A stretch of DNA of 64,000 bases from Escherichia coli O127:H6 str. E2348/69 (GTDB lineage Bacteria > Pseudomonadota > Gammaproteobacteria > Enterobacterales > Enterobacteriaceae), in the NCBI RefSeq assembly GCF_000026545.1, contig NC_011601.1. One strand, 5' to 3'. Below the pieces are notes generated by a model, which ran no database searches, was not told where the DNA came from, and saw only the letters and a list, made by a program, of their open reading frames with translations. Each line of letters begins with the position of its first letter. Position 1 is the stretch's first letter. Below, one piece after another: positions 2,728-39,909 of the stretch. The translations under genes were made by a program, and so were the position numbers.

Positions 2728-4101
2728 TTAACTCCGCTTATACAGCGGCAACCAAATCACCAGCCGTAAACCGCCCAGCGGGCTGTCTTCTGCCTTCACC
2801 CAGCCACGATGCTGCTGAATGGCGGTTTCTACAATCGCCAGCCCCAAACCTGTACCGCCAGATTCACGATCGCGTGCTTCATCGGTCCGATAGAATGGAC
2901 GGAAAATCTGTTCGCGATCTTCCGGGCTAACGCCAGGACCATCGTCGTCCACCGTAATGGTGATACCGTCTTTATCTACCGCAAAGCCCACTTCAATCTT
3001 CGTATGGGAATAACGCAGAGCATTACGAACAATGTTTTCCAGCGCACTTTCCAGGGCGTTCGGGTTGCCGTACAGCGGCCACGGCCCAGGTGGGAAGTTA
3101 ACCGTCAACGACTTGCCCATTTGCTCGGCTTCGAACGCCGCGTTATCCAGCACTTCACTCCACAACTGGTTGGCTTTGATGGTCTCGCTAACCAGCGCAT
3201 TTTTCTGCTGATTACGTGACATCACCAACAGATCGTTGATCATGCTGTCCAGACGTTGCGCTTCGGTTTCAATACGCTCCAGTTCCTTGCTTTCACCGCT
3301 ACGACGGCGCAGTAACGCCGTACCCAGTTGCAGACGCGTCAGCGGGGTGCGCAGTTCGTGAGAGATATCAGAAAGTAGACGCTGCTGAGAGGTCATCATG
3401 CGCTCCAGCGCGGTGACCATCTGGTTAAAACTGGCACCGGCGGCAAGGAATTCCTGTGGCCCCGCTTCCAGTTCCGGGTGCTGGCGTAAGTTTCCCTGGG
3501 CAACTTCATCGGCAGCGTTTTTCAGCTTACGCGCCGGTTTTGCCAGACTCCAGGCCAACCACAACAGCAGCGGCGTACTGACCAGCATGGTGACAATCAG
3601 CAGTAATAGCGGGCGGTCAAACAGTAAGTTGATGAAATCGGATTGAGAACTGCTGGCCGGACGAATCAGATAAAGTTGGTAATTATCTTCGCCATCACGC
3701 ACGGAGAACGGACCGACCAGTTCCACGCGGCCATACTTTTTCTTCTGCGGATGATCGGCGTTATCGGCCTGACCAATAAAGTTACGAATGATCTGCATTT
3801 CGCTGCGTTCAGCGCCGATCACGCGGCCTTCGGTGGTCACCAGTAACAAACGCTGTCCTGGCGGTGCCCACTTATCAATCGCCCGGAACAGACGCCGCCA
3901 CCACATTAAATCGTTGGGCGGATCGTTCGCCAGCTCCGCTTCGACATGCTGCTCAATCATCAGACCCTGACGCTGTTCGCTATCCAGAAGCTCGGTCATC
4001 TGGCGTGAATCGAGCTTGGGTAACATCAAAACCAACATCAACACCAGCGCCAGCGTCAGCCAGAAGATGGCGAAGATGCGCGCGGTTAAGCTGCCTATCA
4101 T
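2728..4101 (-). CDS. cpxA: Envelope-stress sensor histidine kinase CpxA
   Basis: 457-aa ORF; two TM segments, HAMP, H-box (SHELRTPLTRL) and ATPase motifs; overlaps cpxR stop by 4 bp. Confidence 0.95.
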   Translation of the reverse strand: MIGSLTARIFAIFWLTLALVLMLVLMLPKLDSRQMTELLDSEQRQGLMIEQHVEAELANDPPNDLMWWRRLFRAIDKWAPPGQRLLLVTTEGRVIGAERSEMQIIRNFIGQADNADHPQKKKYGRVELVGPFSVRDGEDNYQLYLIRPASSSQSDFINLLFDRPLLLLIVTMLVSTPLLLWLAWSLAKPARKLKNAADEVAQGNLRQHPELEAGPQEFLAAGASFNQMVTALERMMTSQQRLLSDISHELRTPLTRLQLGTALLRRRSGESKELERIETEAQRLDSMINDLLVMSRNQQKNALVSETIKANQLWSEVLDNAAFEAEQMGKSLTVNFPPGPWPLYGNPNALESALENIVRNALRYSHTKIEVGFAVDKDGITITVDDDGPGVSPEDREQIFRPFYRTDEARDRESGGTGLGLAIVETAIQQHRGWVKAEDSPLGGLRLVIWLPLYKRS

Positions 4102-10739: not shown

Positions 10740-11339
10740 TCATTTATTCAAACCTTCAAGCGATTCAGATAGCGCCAGCTTAATCGGTTCAACAGCGAAG
10801 GTCAGCCCCTTTTCGCCGTTGTCCGCGACAACATAACGCAGTGCACCTTCTGTCTCGGTGTAATAACGTTTGTTTTTCCCCGCCGTTAGTAGCGACTGCA
10901 GTTTTTTCTGGCTTTGAGTTTTGGTCATTAATGGGGTGAGTGTGCGGATCACCGCTGCCATGTATGCCTGAGCTTTCGTTTTCGCGGCTTTTTGCTCTGG
11001 CCCCTGGATGGGTAGCCAGGTTATTTGAATGCTTTTGATTTTTAAGGTACCGCGCTCCAGTGCAGTAGAAGCATACAAGTTCTCGTTAATTTTACTTGCT
11101 GCACGAGTGAGATTGGCTTTGTCGGGACTGCTGTCGATGGCACGAAATTCGTTCAGTGGCAGGCTGGGATTCTGGCTGTTAAAGTCTTCTCGAAACTGGC
11201 TGATGGAGAGATCGAAAGTAGGGGCTCCAGCCAGCAGATAAGGCGCGGTCGTTGCCGTATCTGGTGTTTGTGCATGCGCCGTTGTTGTAACGGTTAATGC
11301 AGAACATAAGAGAAAAAACAGCGTACACCCTGGCTTCAT
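10740..11339 (-). CDS. yiiQ: Conserved secreted protein YiiQ (DUF1454)
   Basis: 199-aa ORF with signal peptide; position and sequence match yiiQ as recalled. Confidence 0.85.
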   Translation of the reverse strand: MKPGCTLFFLLCSALTVTTTAHAQTPDTATTAPYLLAGAPTFDLSISQFREDFNSQNPSLPLNEFRAIDSSPDKANLTRAASKINENLYASTALERGTLKIKSIQITWLPIQGPEQKAAKTKAQAYMAAVIRTLTPLMTKTQSQKKLQSLLTAGKNKRYYTETEGALRYVVADNGEKGLTFAVEPIKLALSESLEGLNK

Positions 11340-28796: not shown

Positions 28797-31229
28797 ATGA
28801 GTGTGATTGCGCAGGCAGGGGCGAAAGGTCGTCAACTGCATAAATTTGGTGGCAGTAGTCTGGCTGATGTGAAGTGTTATTTGCGTGTCGCGGGCATTAT
28901 GGCGGAGTACTCTCAGCCTGACGATATGATGGTGGTTTCCGCCGCCGGTAGCACCACTAACCAGTTGATTAACTGGTTGAAACTAAGCCAGACCGATCGT
29001 CTCTCTGCGCATCAGGTTCAACAAACATTACGTCGTTATCAGTGCGATCTGATTAGCGGCCTGCTACCCGCCGAAGAAGCCGATAACCTCATTAGCGCTT
29101 TTGTCAGCGATCTTGAGCGCCTGGCGGCGTTGCTCGACAGCGGTATTAACGATGCGGTGTATGCGGAAGTGGTGGGCCACGGTGAAGTGTGGTCGGCGCG
29201 CCTGATGTCTGCGGTGCTTAATCAACAAGGGCTGCCATCGGCCTGGCTTGATGCCCGCGAGTTTTTACGCGCTGAACGCGCTGCGCAACCGCAGGTTGAT
29301 GAAGGGCTTTCGTACCCGTTGCTGCAACAGCTACTGGTACAACATCCGGGCAAACGTCTGGTGGTGACCGGGTTTATCAGCCGTAACAACGCCGGTGAAA
29401 CGGTGCTGCTTGGGCGTAACGGTTCCGACTATTCCGCGACACAAATCGGTGCGCTGGCGGGTGTTTCTCGCGTAACCATCTGGAGTGACGTCGCCGGGGT
29501 ATATAGCGCCGACCCGCGTAAAGTGAAAGATGCCTGCCTGCTGCCGTTGCTGCGTCTGGATGAAGCCAGCGAACTGGCGCGTCTGGCGGCTCCCGTTCTT
29601 CATGCCCGTACTTTACAGCCCGTTTCTGGCAGCGAAATCGACCTGCAACTGCGCTGTAGCTACACGCCGGATCAAGGTTCCACGCGCATTGAACGCGTGC
29701 TGGCCTCCGGTACTGGTGCGCGTATTGTCACCAGCCATGATGATGTCTGCTTGATTGAGTTTCAGGTGCCCGCCAGCCAGGATTTCAAACTGGCGCATAA
29801 AGAGATCGACCAGATCCTGAAACGTGCTCAGGTGCGCCCACTGGCGGTTGGCGTGCATAACGATCGCCAGTTGCTGCAATTTTGCTACACCTCAGAAGTG
29901 GCCGACAGTGCGCTGAAAATCCTCGACGAAGCGGGATTACCTGGCGAACTGCGCCTGCGTCAGGGGCTGGCGCTGGTGGCGATGGTTGGGGCGGGCGTCA
30001 CCCGTAACCCGCTGCATTGCCACCGCTTCTGGCAGCAACTGAAAGGCCAGCCGGTCGAGTTTACCTGGCAGTCTGATGATGGCATCAGCCTGGTGGCAGT
30101 ACTGCGCACCGGCCCGACCGAAAGCCTGATTCAGGGGCTGCATCAGTCCGTCTTCCGCGCGGAAAAACGCATCGGCCTGGTATTGTTCGGTAAGGGCAAT
30201 ATCGGTTCCCGCTGGCTGGAACTGTTCGCCCGTGAGCAGAGTACGCTTTCGGCACGTACCGGCTTTGAATTTGTGCTGGCAGGCGTGGTGGACAGCCGCC
30301 GCAGCCTGTTGAGCTATGACGGGCTGGACGCCAGCCGCGCGTTAGCCTTCTTCAACGATGAAGCGGTCGAGCAGGATGAAGAGTCGCTGTTCCTGTGGAT
30401 GCGCGCCCACCCGTATGATGATTTAGTGGTGCTGGACGTTACCGCCAGCCAGCAGCTCGCTGACCAGTATCTTGATTTCGCCAGCCACGGTTTCCACGTC
30501 ATCAGTGCCAACAAACTGGCAGGAGCGAGCGACAGCAATAAATATCGCCAGATCCACGACGCCTTCGAAAAAACCGGGCGTCACTGGCTGTACAATGCCA
30601 CTGTCGGTGCGGGTTTGCCGATCAACCATACCGTGCGCGATCTGATCGACAGCGGCGATACCATTTTGTCGATCAGTGGGATCTTCTCTGGCACGCTCTC
30701 CTGGCTGTTCCTGCAATTCGACGGTAGCGTGCCGTTTACCGAACTGGTGGATCAGGCGTGGCAGCAGGGCTTAACCGAGCCTGACCCGCGTGATGACCTT
30801 TCCGGCAAAGACGTGATGCGCAAGCTGGTGATTCTGGCGCGTGAAGCGGGTTACAACATTGAACCGGACCAGGTACGTGTTGAATCACTGGTACCTGCCC
30901 ATTGCGAAGGCGGCAGCATCGACCATTTCTTTGAAAATGGCGATGAACTTAACGAGCAGATGGTGCAACGACTGGAAGCGGCCCGCGAAATGGGGCTGGT
31001 GCTGCGCTACGTGGCGCGTTTCGATGCCAATGGCAAAGCGCGTGTGGGCGTGGAAGCGGTGCGTGAAGACCATCCGCTGGCATCACTACTGCCATGCGAT
31101 AACGTCTTTGCCATCGAAAGCCGCTGGTATCGCGACAACCCGCTGGTGATCCGCGGGCCAGGTGCAGGGCGCGACGTCACCGCCGGGGCGATTCAGTCGG
31201 ATATCAACCGGCTGGCGCAGTTGTTGTAG
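28797..31229 (+). CDS. metL: Bifunctional aspartokinase II / homoserine dehydrogenase II
   Basis: 810-aa ORF starting 3 bp after the metB stop; MSVIAQAGAKGRQLHKFGGSSLADVKCYLRVAG. Confidence 0.95.
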   Translation: MSVIAQAGAKGRQLHKFGGSSLADVKCYLRVAGIMAEYSQPDDMMVVSAAGSTTNQLINWLKLSQTDRLSAHQVQQTLRRYQCDLISGLLPAEEADNLISAFVSDLERLAALLDSGINDAVYAEVVGHGEVWSARLMSAVLNQQGLPSAWLDAREFLRAERAAQPQVDEGLSYPLLQQLLVQHPGKRLVVTGFISRNNAGETVLLGRNGSDYSATQIGALAGVSRVTIWSDVAGVYSADPRKVKDACLLPLLRLDEASELARLAAPVLHARTLQPVSGSEIDLQLRCSYTPDQGSTRIERVLASGTGARIVTSHDDVCLIEFQVPASQDFKLAHKEIDQILKRAQVRPLAVGVHNDRQLLQFCYTSEVADSALKILDEAGLPGELRLRQGLALVAMVGAGVTRNPLHCHRFWQQLKGQPVEFTWQSDDGISLVAVLRTGPTESLIQGLHQSVFRAEKRIGLVLFGKGNIGSRWLELFAREQSTLSARTGFEFVLAGVVDSRRSLLSYDGLDASRALAFFNDEAVEQDEESLFLWMRAHPYDDLVVLDVTASQQLADQYLDFASHGFHVISANKLAGASDSNKYRQIHDAFEKTGRHWLYNATVGAGLPINHTVRDLIDSGDTILSISGIFSGTLSWLFLQFDGSVPFTELVDQAWQQGLTEPDPRDDLSGKDVMRKLVILAREAGYNIEPDQVRVESLVPAHCEGGSIDHFFENGDELNEQMVQRLEAAREMGLVLRYVARFDANGKARVGVEAVREDHPLASLLPCDNVFAIESRWYRDNPLVIRGPGAGRDVTAGAIQSDINRLAQLL

Positions 31230-31241
31230 TGATTATTGAAC

Positions 31242-31269
31242 AAAAGCTGGCAGTTGCCAGCTTTTGTTG
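31242..31269 (+). terminator. Rho-independent terminator downstream of metL
   Basis: AAAAGCTGGCA-GT-TGCCAGCTTTTGTTG. Confidence 0.8.
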
Positions 31270-31329
31270 TCACCCCTAAACCTCTTCCTGGGGAAGTGGT
31301 GATTGATTGTCATTTTGCCTTTGGTCAGT

Positions 31330-31353
31330 GCCCCCGGTAATAAGGGGGCTTTT
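31330..31353 (+). terminator. Second hairpin plus T-run at the left edge of the metL-metF accessory region
   Basis: GCCCCC-GGTAATAA-GGGGGC followed by TTTTG. Confidence 0.4.
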
Positions 31354-31446
31354 GTGTTGAGCGATGAAGTAACAGAGTGAATGGTGAAGTTATTAATGAC
31401 AATTACAAAATGACATTAAGTAACAATATCTAAAATGTCACCTAAT

Positions 31447-32307
31447 TTAAAATTGATAACCAATAGTAGTATAGGTTCCCCATCCTGTATTTTTTAATTC
31501 AAATGGACCATCTCCGAAGTTAACCTTCTCTCCCGCATTCCATTGTCCACCGTTGTGAAAATAACGTAGTGTAAATGCAAATTTCCAGTGTTCATATAGA
31601 AGGGAAAGGATATGGCTTGAAGCAATAGCATTACTGGTTCGTTTATTATTGTGTGACTTGTCCGCAAGATCGGAGCCAAAATCAAAGTTAGTAAAACTAT
31701 TGTATACCAATCGTCCTCCGAATAAATTTGTAAGAGGGATGCTATATTTTATTTTGAATCGATATCCGTCCCATTCATTTTCATTAGCGGCACCATAGTT
31801 TTGCCACTGATACTTGGCGTATATATTGGCAGAAAGCTTAATTGGTAGACCCGTGTCGATATCTGTACCAAGCCCCATATACCATGTACTTTGCCGGGAT
31901 GACTGGTTGTCACCCATATCATAGACATAGTTGTTTGCAATGAACCATTCTTTAAATGGGCCGAACGCAAGATTTAATCCGGTCAATTTGTCAATGGAAA
32001 ACCGAGGTTCTATTTCCGTAAATAGTGGTGAGCCCTCATCCCAGATCCCAACATCATAGTGACTGCCGACGCCAAAGAATTTCGGTAGATCAACATAACC
32101 ATAAAAATCAAACCAGTCTTTTCTTCCTGCTACAGTATATTCAGGGTAGAGGTCGTTAGTCAGTCTTGGGCCAAAGCGAGAGTCTGTGCGACCAATGACA
32201 TTCAAGCTTTGATGTAACCAGCTTTCATCAATTTTAATTTCCTGAGCGTTTCCAATGCAAGGTATTAATAGAATGGATAAAGCTATCCAGTGCTTTTTTA
32301 TATACAT
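31447..32307 (-). CDS. Tsx/OmpK-family outer-membrane nucleoside-specific channel (accessory paralog)
   Basis: 286-aa ORF; N-terminal signal peptide ([21 protein letters not shown]|QE), aromatic-rich beta-barrel-like sequence, C-terminal ...GYQF ending in Phe as in Tsx; last gene of a minus-strand three-gene cluster. Confidence 0.6.
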
Positions 32308-35826: not shown

Positions 35827-36951
35827 CTAACAAGATGGAGTGAGCGATTCATTGTATTTTAACGCCAGTGAGGTCAGCATTTGCGTTACGCGACCTGCGG
35901 ATAATAACGCGCTTTGGGTAAAGTCGTGTTGGTCTGTCAGCCATGTGATAAAACAACGACTGGTTGCCAGAGAAACATTTGCGCCCCTTTCTAAGCAGGC
36001 TCCCGTGAGTAGGCAGACCATCTTGCAGTTATTCCCCTGCTCCCAGCGCTGCCACTGATTTTGCCACCAACCATGGTATGTCGTTCCCTTAAAATGCCAG
36101 GGCGTATCAGCGTTACTGTCACTGATTTCTTCTTCTACGAACCAAAGTTCACCTTGTTGTTGGCGGAACTGATCTGCCCAGGCTGTAATAATTGCGCCTC
36201 TTAGAAAACATTCGTGTGAAATAATATGCGTTTTGACATCTGGATAGCGGATTTTCAGTATTCTGAAATGCCCGTGTGCCTTGATAACCGGGCGTAGTAT
36301 GGCTCCCTTACCGTTGCGCTTGAGTACAGCACTGCCATACTGAATTTCATCGAACTGGCTCCGGCGCAAGAATTGCGCTTCACGCATATCTACCTTCTGC
36401 ACGATATCGCGATGGTGCATAGTTGGTTCTGTGTTGCCCTTGTAACTGTACCGCAGACTGTCTCCTGTCTGATGTTGCGTATAATTCGTGGAGAGATGAA
36501 GAATGTTGCCACGAGTGGCGTCAAGACTGACTAAAACATACAGTTTTTGTACTGCGCTGGCCCCTTGAAAGGGTATGAACAGTTGAACGGTTTCAATGGC
36601 CTGGGGATGCGTAATTTCTTTCTGATATTTTTTAGGCGTCCAGACTTTTTTGCAGTTACGGCATTGAATGCGTTGCGAACCCTGTGGATTGTGACCATAA
36701 CAAATCATGTCTGTGCCATAACATACCGGGCAGAAATGGCCTTTCTCAATTGCATAAGTAGACAAGTGAACTGACAACCAGTCACGAAATTGTTGCTCGT
36801 CAAACAACGGCGGGTAACTGCCACATGCCCGACAGTGCAGTGCCGGATAACCCAGTTTATAGTCTGGCCAACTGTAATCTTCCGATGAGGCCAATCCCAA
36901 ATTTCGGCAACCGAACGTTTTACAGGCATTAATCGTAAACAGAGTCGACAT
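35827..36951 (-). CDS. Hypothetical cysteine-rich protein with two putative N-terminal zinc ribbons and a Trp-rich C-terminal domain
   Basis: 374-aa ORF; Cys clusters C-x4-C...C-x2-C and C-x2-C-x17-C-x2-C (HFCPVCYG...IQCRNCKK); no signal peptide; not recognised as any K-12 protein; AT-rich flanking intergenic regions. Confidence 0.6.
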   Translation of the reverse strand: MSTLFTINACKTFGCRNLGLASSEDYSWPDYKLGYPALHCRACGSYPPLFDEQQFRDWLSVHLSTYAIEKGHFCPVCYGTDMICYGHNPQGSQRIQCRNCKKVWTPKKYQKEITHPQAIETVQLFIPFQGASAVQKLYVLVSLDATRGNILHLSTNYTQHQTGDSLRYSYKGNTEPTMHHRDIVQKVDMREAQFLRRSQFDEIQYGSAVLKRNGKGAILRPVIKAHGHFRILKIRYPDVKTHIISHECFLRGAIITAWADQFRQQQGELWFVEEEISDSNADTPWHFKGTTYHGWWQNQWQRWEQGNNCKMVCLLTGACLERGANVSLATSRCFITWLTDQHDFTQSALLSAGRVTQMLTSLALKYNESLTPSC

Positions 36952-38637: not shown

Positions 38638-38947
38638 AAGTGCGCACTGAATTGACTCAACCGTTTGTTACCCGTTGATTGCGCAGATCCTGTATTCGGC
38701 CTACGCGAGGGCGCAGGCCGAATCAGATGCCTTAGCATCACCATCCGGTGGCAGGACGTTGTTTTTAGAATTAGCCCAGGTGTCGCTGTGTTGTCAGAAT
38801 ATGAGTCAAAACGTGCGAGGTGGATTGCGCTATAGAGAAATCTTTTATCGCCTCTAATTAAGATGAGTTTTTTTCATCTTCCCTGATTTTTCCTCACCAT
38901 CATTGGTTATTTTTCGGTTGACGCCCTTCGGCTTTTCCTTCATCTTT

Positions 38948-38978
38948 ACATCTGGACGTCTAAACGGATAGATGTGCA
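38948..38978. promoter_or_regulatory. MetJ operator (met boxes) upstream of metF
   Basis: ACATCTGGACGTCTAAACGGATAGATGTGCAC contains tandem met-box-like octamers including GACGTCT. Confidence 0.7.
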
Positions 38979-39015
38979 CAACACAACATATAACGATAAG
39001 CGATTGATGAGGTAA

Positions 39016-39909
<894 letters not shown>

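Follow-up and report, generated by a model that had tools for sequence, protein, structure and literature searches.

The window analysed here is a stretch of 64,000 nucleotides with 100% identity to Escherichia coli E2348/69. Within it metL and a tsx-like gene run towards each other, separated by a gap of 217 bp that carries no annotation in the RefSeq record. The product of the tsx-like gene matches the Pfam family Channel_Tsx (E 1.5e-69), and the gene is the last of a module consisting of tsx and two 5'-nucleotidase genes. The features of the region are as follows.

28797-31229, + strand: metL (aspartate kinase / homoserine dehydrogenase II), from the open reading frame list and the RefSeq annotation
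31227-31229, + strand: metL stop codon TAG, the last position that this DNA shares with K-12-type and ST131-type E. coli
31239-31268, both strands: hairpin H1, a perfect 14+14 palindrome (inverted-repeat search, folding)
31269-31307, + strand: IS200-group scar, the first 39 nt (left end) of an element (match to intact copies)
31281-31299, + strand: third hairpin, CCTCTTCC-TGG-GGAAGTGG, subterminal within the scar, between H1 and H2
31303-31335, + strand: block conserved with Citrobacter enshiensis, TTGATTGTCATTTTGCCTTTGGTCAGTGCCCCC, 27/33 identical to the spacer between tsx and the extra gene of that species (locus L086; three-way alignment)
31330-31359, + strand: hairpin H2, GCCCCC-GGTAATAA-GGGGGC (stem-loop 31330-31349) with tail TTTTGTGTTG (terminator scan, folding)
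31395-31446, - strand: A+U-rich hairpin (31415-31446) and U-rich stretch GUCAUUUUGUAAUUGUCAUU (folding, inverted-repeat search)
31447-32307, - strand: tsx-like outer-membrane nucleoside channel gene, convergent with metL (RefSeq annotation Tsx)
Right of the tsx-like gene, - strand: two 5'-nucleotidase genes
35827-36951, - strand: 374-aa hypothetical gene
35842-35856, + strand: right edge of the tsx module, where the final ~45 bp of metL recur in degenerate form (GAGCGATTCA, then TTGTA) with a 28-bp internal deletion (ST131-type alignment)
Between the 374-aa hypothetical gene and metF, + strand: third 5'-nucleotidase gene
38869-39018, + strand: metF promoter region, conserved across Enterobacteriaceae, where K-12 similarity resumes
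39019: start of metF

The whole metL/tsx-like spacer folds more stably than shuffled sequences do (z -4.8 for the + strand, -7.2 for the - strand). G+C content falls from 0.59 (31000-31299) to 0.36 (31300-31599), in agreement with the turn to AT-rich sequence described in an earlier note on this DNA. That note had also reported two hairpins with T-runs after metL and short ATGACATT / AATGTCAC repeats beside the tsx-like stop. Both hairpins were recovered, H1 with its coordinates corrected from 31242-31269 to 31239-31268, and the repeats appeared in the inverted-repeat search; the inventory was accurate for H1 and H2 and had missed the third hairpin lying between them. An Rfam covariance search of 30900-31800 with E up to 10 matched no family, its sole match being a chance SCARNA7 hit (10.6 bits, E 3.3) within the tsx-like gene. 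A phage collection returned chance matches only (E 0.2), and no support was obtained for the small open reading frames (25-34 aa) of the spacer.

In K-12 the metL-metF spacer is 348 bp long and metL ends in TAA, as opposed to TAG in E2348/69. The two sequences cease to be similar at the metL stop codon and match again from window position 38869, 150 bp before metF. When 38638-39018 was used as a BLAST query against the K-12 locus (L002) and 80 other species, query positions 232-381 corresponded to K-12 positions 3299-3448 with 98% identity, while megablast matches of about 4,300 genomes that lack the island end at query position 99, which is window position 31228. The segment 31230-31446 has no similarity to the K-12 locus, and H1, H2 and the scar are all absent from its spacer, the K-12-specific part of which is 200 bp. 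The earlier note had placed the left junction of an island at metL unless both hairpins were to be found in K-12; as both are absent there, the boundary stands at the metL stop. Its proposal that one hairpin may belong to an ancestral metL-metF spacer was rejected for the K-12 spacer, to which neither is similar and in which the transcript ends elsewhere. The primary 3' terminus of K-12 metL has been mapped experimentally 181 nt past the stop (PMC10687069, supplement, the 3'-end tables of which hold no E2348C entries). By our own reading this position would fall in the U-tract of a hairpin unrelated to H1 or H2, TCCGGT...ACCGGA-TTTTCTTTTTC (K-12 locus 3251-3284). A REP-like hairpin (TTCGGCCTACGCGAGGGCGCAGGCCGAA) is present in the window at 38690-38730, after the + strand 5'-nucleotidase gene and upstream of the conserved metF promoter region.

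Three forms of the metL flank cover nearly all of 5,426 complete E. coli genomes.

K-12-type short spacer: 3,579 genomes of 5,426
Hypothetical gene directly abutting metL (ST131 type): 1,183 genomes of 5,426
Full spacer with H1 and H2 (CFT073, 83972, ATCC 25922, E2348/69): 660 genomes of 5,426

The last count refers to genomes with at least 80% of the spacer; a further three contain just a partial match, located elsewhere. The ST131 type has no hairpins, and its hypothetical gene, convergent with metL, shares 37 bp with it (locus L005, 6064-6100). The full spacer is found only in linkage with the island, and among the 5,426 genomes H1 never occurs without the rest of it. A repeated element of the REP or MITE kind was ruled out, since the spacer is single-copy in every carrier genome and only a 46-nt part, belonging to the insertion sequence, recurs. 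Two alleles of the full spacer exist that are 93% identical, and both contain H1 and the scar. The 93% allele is present in 102 genomes; in one of these, WP2-W18-ESBL-08 (L003, 9232-10077), RefSeq annotates the tsx-like gene as an incomplete pseudogene that is missing its C-terminus. A metagenome-assembled "Citrobacter sp." contig (L006, DXKH01000038.1) is 99-100% identical to E. coli at the metL 3' end and the metF upstream region, and is therefore probably E. coli DNA.

Hairpins H1 and H2

The two arms of H1, AACAAAAGCTGGCA and TGCCAGCTTTTGTT, occupy 31239-31252 and 31255-31268 and are 100% complementary. In the predicted fold of the palindrome 13 bp enclose a 4-nt loop; the energy is -20.9 kcal/mol (z -5.8) for the + strand and -20.3 kcal/mol (z -6.2) for the - strand, values that 0 of 200 shuffles equalled. 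The G+C core of H1 is GCUGGC-AGUU-GCCAGC, after which come UUUUGUUGU on the + strand and UUUUGUUCAAU on the - strand; as an A-run flanks the core at one end and a T-run at the other, the same DNA yields a stem and U-tract whichever strand is transcribed. H1 thus has the stable G+C-rich stem-loop and following U-tract by which intrinsic (Rho-independent) terminators are recognised. It is missing from the output of the consensus terminator scan because the rule used there runs the stem through the T-run. H1 is identical in the 93% allele, which differs at 7% of spacer positions.

H2 consists of six G-C pairs and an 8-nt loop and is listed by the consensus terminator scan. On the + strand it folds at -14.6 kcal/mol (z -2.4), only moderately better than shuffled sequences, 5 of 200 of which equalled it; the - strand gives -14.0 kcal/mol (z -3.1). 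A stem-loop with a U-tract, as expected of an intrinsic terminator, is formed on the + strand only, the - strand continuing into ACTGACCAAAGG, which is A-rich. In the 93% allele the 5' arm of H2 carries a 1-nt deletion. H2 is flanked by the two halves of a 19-nt inverted repeat (31299-31317 / 31406-31424), which show 79% complementarity and pair perfectly over a 9-nt core, ATTGTCATT/AATGACAAT; when the - strand is folded, they enclose H2 in an outer stem of 10 bp.

The origin of H2 can be followed in Citrobacter enshiensis, in which the last ~140 nt before tsx align with 31303-31446, including a hairpin at the position of H2; H2 is therefore island DNA. The 33-nt block at 31303-31335, which reaches into the H2 5' arm, is the best-conserved part of the spacer between the two species and, judging from the alignment, island-native DNA starts at about 31303. 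The C. enshiensis hairpin has its T-rich tail on the same (+) side and a stem that is partly different. With z -0.6 it is not better than shuffles, and as C. enshiensis is the one outgroup, the apparent structural conservation of H2 rests on two sequences. The earlier suggestion that the two hairpins have separate origins is borne out insofar as H2 belongs to DNA common to C. enshiensis and H1 is found only in the E. coli form of the island, but neither is ancestral in the K-12 sense.

An IS200-group scar between the hairpins

Directly after the TTTTGTT of H1 (GCCAGCTTTTGTT followed by GTCACCCC) the spacer continues with a sequence that matches the left end of intact insertion elements at 33 of 39 positions by eye (~85%). 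Its core was recovered by BLAST against the window as 30/34 identities (88%, E 5e-4). With the whole element as query, nothing beyond IS nt 1-39 was found in the window, neither tnpA nor a right end. The segment 31269-31307 is a scar, not a functional element. A 46-nt stretch of the scar region is matched at 87% in 478 plasmid records and is also matched in three other E. coli chromosomes. In one IncX1 plasmid (L088) the match lies ~80 bp upstream of a tnpA gene of the IS200/IS605 family.

Five intact chromosomal copies of the parent element were recovered. It is ~630 bp long and reaches up to 9 copies in strain CUPF09. One intact copy (L091) encodes a 144-aa TnpA that belongs to PF01797 (Y1_Tnp, E 6.8e-41). 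Subterminal hairpins are found at both ends, CCACCTCC-TAG-GGAGGTGG on the left and CCACCTCC-TCA-GGAGGTGG on the right; together with the Y1 (HUH) TnpA and the absence of terminal inverted repeats and of a target-site duplication, these place the element in the IS200 group. Comparison of an empty (L095) and a filled mdh-degS site puts the insertion after TTTTTTGT(T), without duplication of the target. In every copy examined that has kept its left end (five intact at L090-L094, one cut at its right end in L088 and one interrupted by IS2 in L089) this end stands directly 3' of a host hairpin and T-run (TTTTRTT), and the element is oriented like the gene upstream of it. The window scar occupies the same position relative to H1.

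The likeness to Salmonella IS200 extends to the subterminal hairpin (nt 13-31 of the IS200-group element), which lies here too at the left end and adjacent to a host terminator. However, only 39 nt are left at this locus, with no tnpA and no right end, and the parent element differs from IS200 in its 144-aa TnpA, its Shine-Dalgarno region and its length (~630 bp versus 707 bp). For IS200, whose tnpA transcription is reported to start at about nt 40, the inverted repeat of the left end (nt 12-34) has been described as a bi-directional terminator shielding against impinging transcription (PMC4513863). Insertion sequences have also been reported to have terminator-like sequences just upstream of them, most strongly in the IS200/IS605 family (bioRxiv 10.1101/2025.07.22.666184). 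The adjacency of scar and terminator seen here agrees with this and with the terminator described for the IS200 left end. The IS200-group elements examined here insert immediately 3' of terminator T-runs; where a left-end scar is found, the hairpin before it may therefore have been terminator-like when the element arrived.

In E2348/69 the scar hairpin is degenerate, having one mismatch and z -0.7. One of its pairs is compensatory between the alleles, C-G in the 93% allele and T-A in E2348/69.

Two other assignments to the element were rejected. The middle hairpin is not the right end of the IS, as its flanks CCCTAAACC and GGTGATTGAT match the left end only. H2 was also compared with an inner hairpin from the right end of this IS (GCCCCCTTATAGGGGGC within the element, GCCCCCTTATTACCGGGGGC on the window - strand), and the resemblance is a chance one: the match covers no more than 10 nt (E 0.14), it runs opposite to the left-end scar, and the C. 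enshiensis stem differs.

Another truncated left end of this subtype (GTCACCCC...CCTGGGGAGG) was encountered at L004 4007-4052, a second scar that is cut at about IS nt 45 as compared with nt 39 in the window. It lies between a gtr O-antigen-modification cluster and a truncated open reading frame, tailspike-like by eye, and an IS3 element adjoins it. A phage origin was likewise discarded, phage matches being due to chance and the partial match at L004 being this second scar.

The nested island in other genera

The metL C-terminus was used for a species scan with one genome per species, from which 80 loci were kept. A pair formed by the hypothetical gene and a + strand 5'-nucleotidase gene lies beside metL in many genera and is common in the Enterobacteriaceae, often overlapping the metL end; carriers include Citrobacter, Klebsiella, Salmonella arizonae, Kosakonia, Phytobacter, Pseudocitrobacter and Escherichia whittamii (the overlap form is seen at loci L007-L083, around 10740-10860). 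Given this wide occurrence of the pair, the short K-12 spacer may be a derived, deleted state. No tsx gene was detected at the metL locus in the 80 other-species loci. The module of tsx and two 5'-nucleotidase genes appears to be an insertion into the older hypothetical-gene/nucleotidase arrangement, made at the metL overlap. The degenerate metL copy at the right junction falls within the 3'-terminal part of the 374-aa hypothetical gene and represents a segment once shared by two convergent genes.

The nearest relative of the Tsx protein is that of C. enshiensis (86% identity). This species, reached through the Tsx protein, holds the same island between metL and metF and was the only carrier found outside E. 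coli. The same deleted metL copy is present at its right edge, which points to a single insertion event across genera. Its left junction reads metL, a REP-like hairpin, a 327-aa gene on the - strand, a 430-bp spacer and tsx, and contains neither H1 nor the IS scar. The 327-aa gene (L086, 9292-10275) has a sole Pfam hit that is weak and below threshold (Sugar_tr, E 2e-4), and no trace of it was found in E. coli. Either E. coli may have lost this gene, or C. enshiensis may have gained it.

Proposed history and function of the spacer

Taken together, the spacer is probably a composite of three parts, H1, an IS200-group stub and the island-native H2, none of which is ancestral K-12 sequence, brought about by insertion of the IS and a later deletion and having roles in termination. 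Sequence anatomy, homologies and the insertion pattern are observed directly, and from them we infer both terminator activity and the order of events. H1 would have been present after metL as a hairpin and T-run at the outset. An IS200-group element would then have landed behind it, in the same direction as metL and without target duplication; as the element inserts directly 3' of a terminator T-run (TTTTRTT), H1 would predate its arrival. A deletion running from about IS nt 39 into the tsx 3' flank, across TTGAT, would have followed. The bases TTGAT (31303-31307) belong both to the IS sequence and to the C. enshiensis-like one, suggesting that the deletion was joined at a microhomology. It would have taken with it the remainder of the element and the DNA in between, perhaps including the 327-aa gene, and brought H1 to within ~60 bp of H2. 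Both E. coli alleles share the resulting structure, so these events would predate their 7% divergence. The tandem hairpins would thus be explained by IS200-group insertion and later deletion, and are informative on the history of the island; setting its left boundary at the metL stop codon is of value mainly for annotation. All of the parts are of known kinds, namely intrinsic terminators, an IS200-group scar and a nested island at a recombination hot spot, and no new mechanism is implied.

Functionally, H1 reads as a two-way intrinsic terminator, serving metBL on the + strand and the convergent tsx-like operon on the - strand. Transcripts of metBL would most likely be ended by it, 12 nt past the stop. 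On the - strand H1 is predicted to be the only strong stem and U-tract open to the tsx-like operon, and would act as a strong final stop for its tsx-like / 5'-nucleotidase transcripts. In its G+C-rich stem, 4-nt loop, 5' A-run and 3' T-run, and in its position between two convergent genes, 12 nt past one of the stops, it is like the bidirectional Rho-independent terminators of E. coli. Unlike these, it lies ~180 nt from the tsx-like stop, and its full 13-bp stem swallows the U-tract, so that termination would need the 6-bp core. The K-12 metL terminator would have the same role as that proposed here, ending metBL before metF, yet its sequence is unrelated to H1 or H2, it lies 181 nt rather than ~40 nt past the stop, and it stands in the 200-bp K-12-type segment with a REP-like element (L002, ~3180-3215).

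H2 would stop + strand transcription that enters the tsx operon antisense, as a backstop behind H1 and the IS hairpin. With its T-run on the + strand only, it could not stop the island's own - strand transcripts. The earlier note's idea that the pair of hairpins insulates metBL from convergent island transcription would therefore fit the symmetric H1, and possibly the IS hairpin, but not H2.

In an alternative reading H2 is no terminator but acts on the - strand, either as a stem-loop that stabilises the 3' end of the tsx-like mRNA or as a site of its processing; in C. enshiensis it would be intercistronic. That the hairpin is equally stable on the - strand would be expected in this case, as would the location of its C. 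enshiensis counterpart between two co-oriented - strand genes (tsx and the extra gene) and the long-range inverted repeat of 10-19 nt that encloses it in the - strand fold. In both species, however, the T-rich run lies on the + side and the A-rich run on the - side, an asymmetry for which a stabiliser would have no need, and we regard this reading as unlikely.

If H1, the IS stub and H2 were instead neutral leftovers, with termination carried out by Rho or only incidentally by the hairpins, their absence from the 1,183 ST131-type genomes would not be unexpected; the direct overlap of genes in those genomes suggests that the structures are not needed at the locus. The IS stub is, moreover, visibly decaying in E2348/69. 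Against such neutrality, H1 is a perfect 28-nt palindrome preserved without change in two alleles that otherwise diverge, and one pair of substitutions in the IS hairpin is compensatory. Absence of any present function is accordingly held to be very unlikely.

A hairpin with a U-tail is the usual 3' end of Hfq-type small RNAs, and H2 could in principle be the terminator of a short + strand RNA (~45-50 nt) that starts in or just after the IS scar and carries UUUUGCCUUUGGUCAG as a possible pairing region. The strong conservation of the 33-nt block 5' of H2 and the IS200 tnpA start near nt 40 (PMC4513863) are in keeping with such an RNA, but the region matched no Rfam family, nothing promoter-like came up in the scan on the + strand of the spacer, a promoter could not be common to both species when C. 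enshiensis lacks the scar, and the portion of the EPEC RIL-seq supplement tables available holds no entry for E2348C_4243-4246, so that this reading ranks as even less probable. Least probable of all is its narrower version, in which the IS200 stub, equivalent to the region just upstream of the tnpA start in IS200, and H2 would form an orphan unit making a ~50-nt + strand RNA with UUUUGCCUUUGGUCAG; were it true, an IS scar and a borrowed terminator would by chance have given rise to a small RNA in ~12% of E. coli, among them CFT073, ATCC 25922 and E2348/69.

Returning to the composite with terminator roles, two further structures may bear on the end of the tsx-like operon. The IS hairpin is a weak candidate for a terminator of this operon. 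The A+U-rich hairpin at 31415-31446 adjoins the tsx-like stop and is made of the ATGACATT / AATGTCAC repeats; at -10.1 kcal/mol (z -1.9, equalled by 5 of 200 shuffles) its candidacy as the first terminator behind the tsx-like gene is weak.
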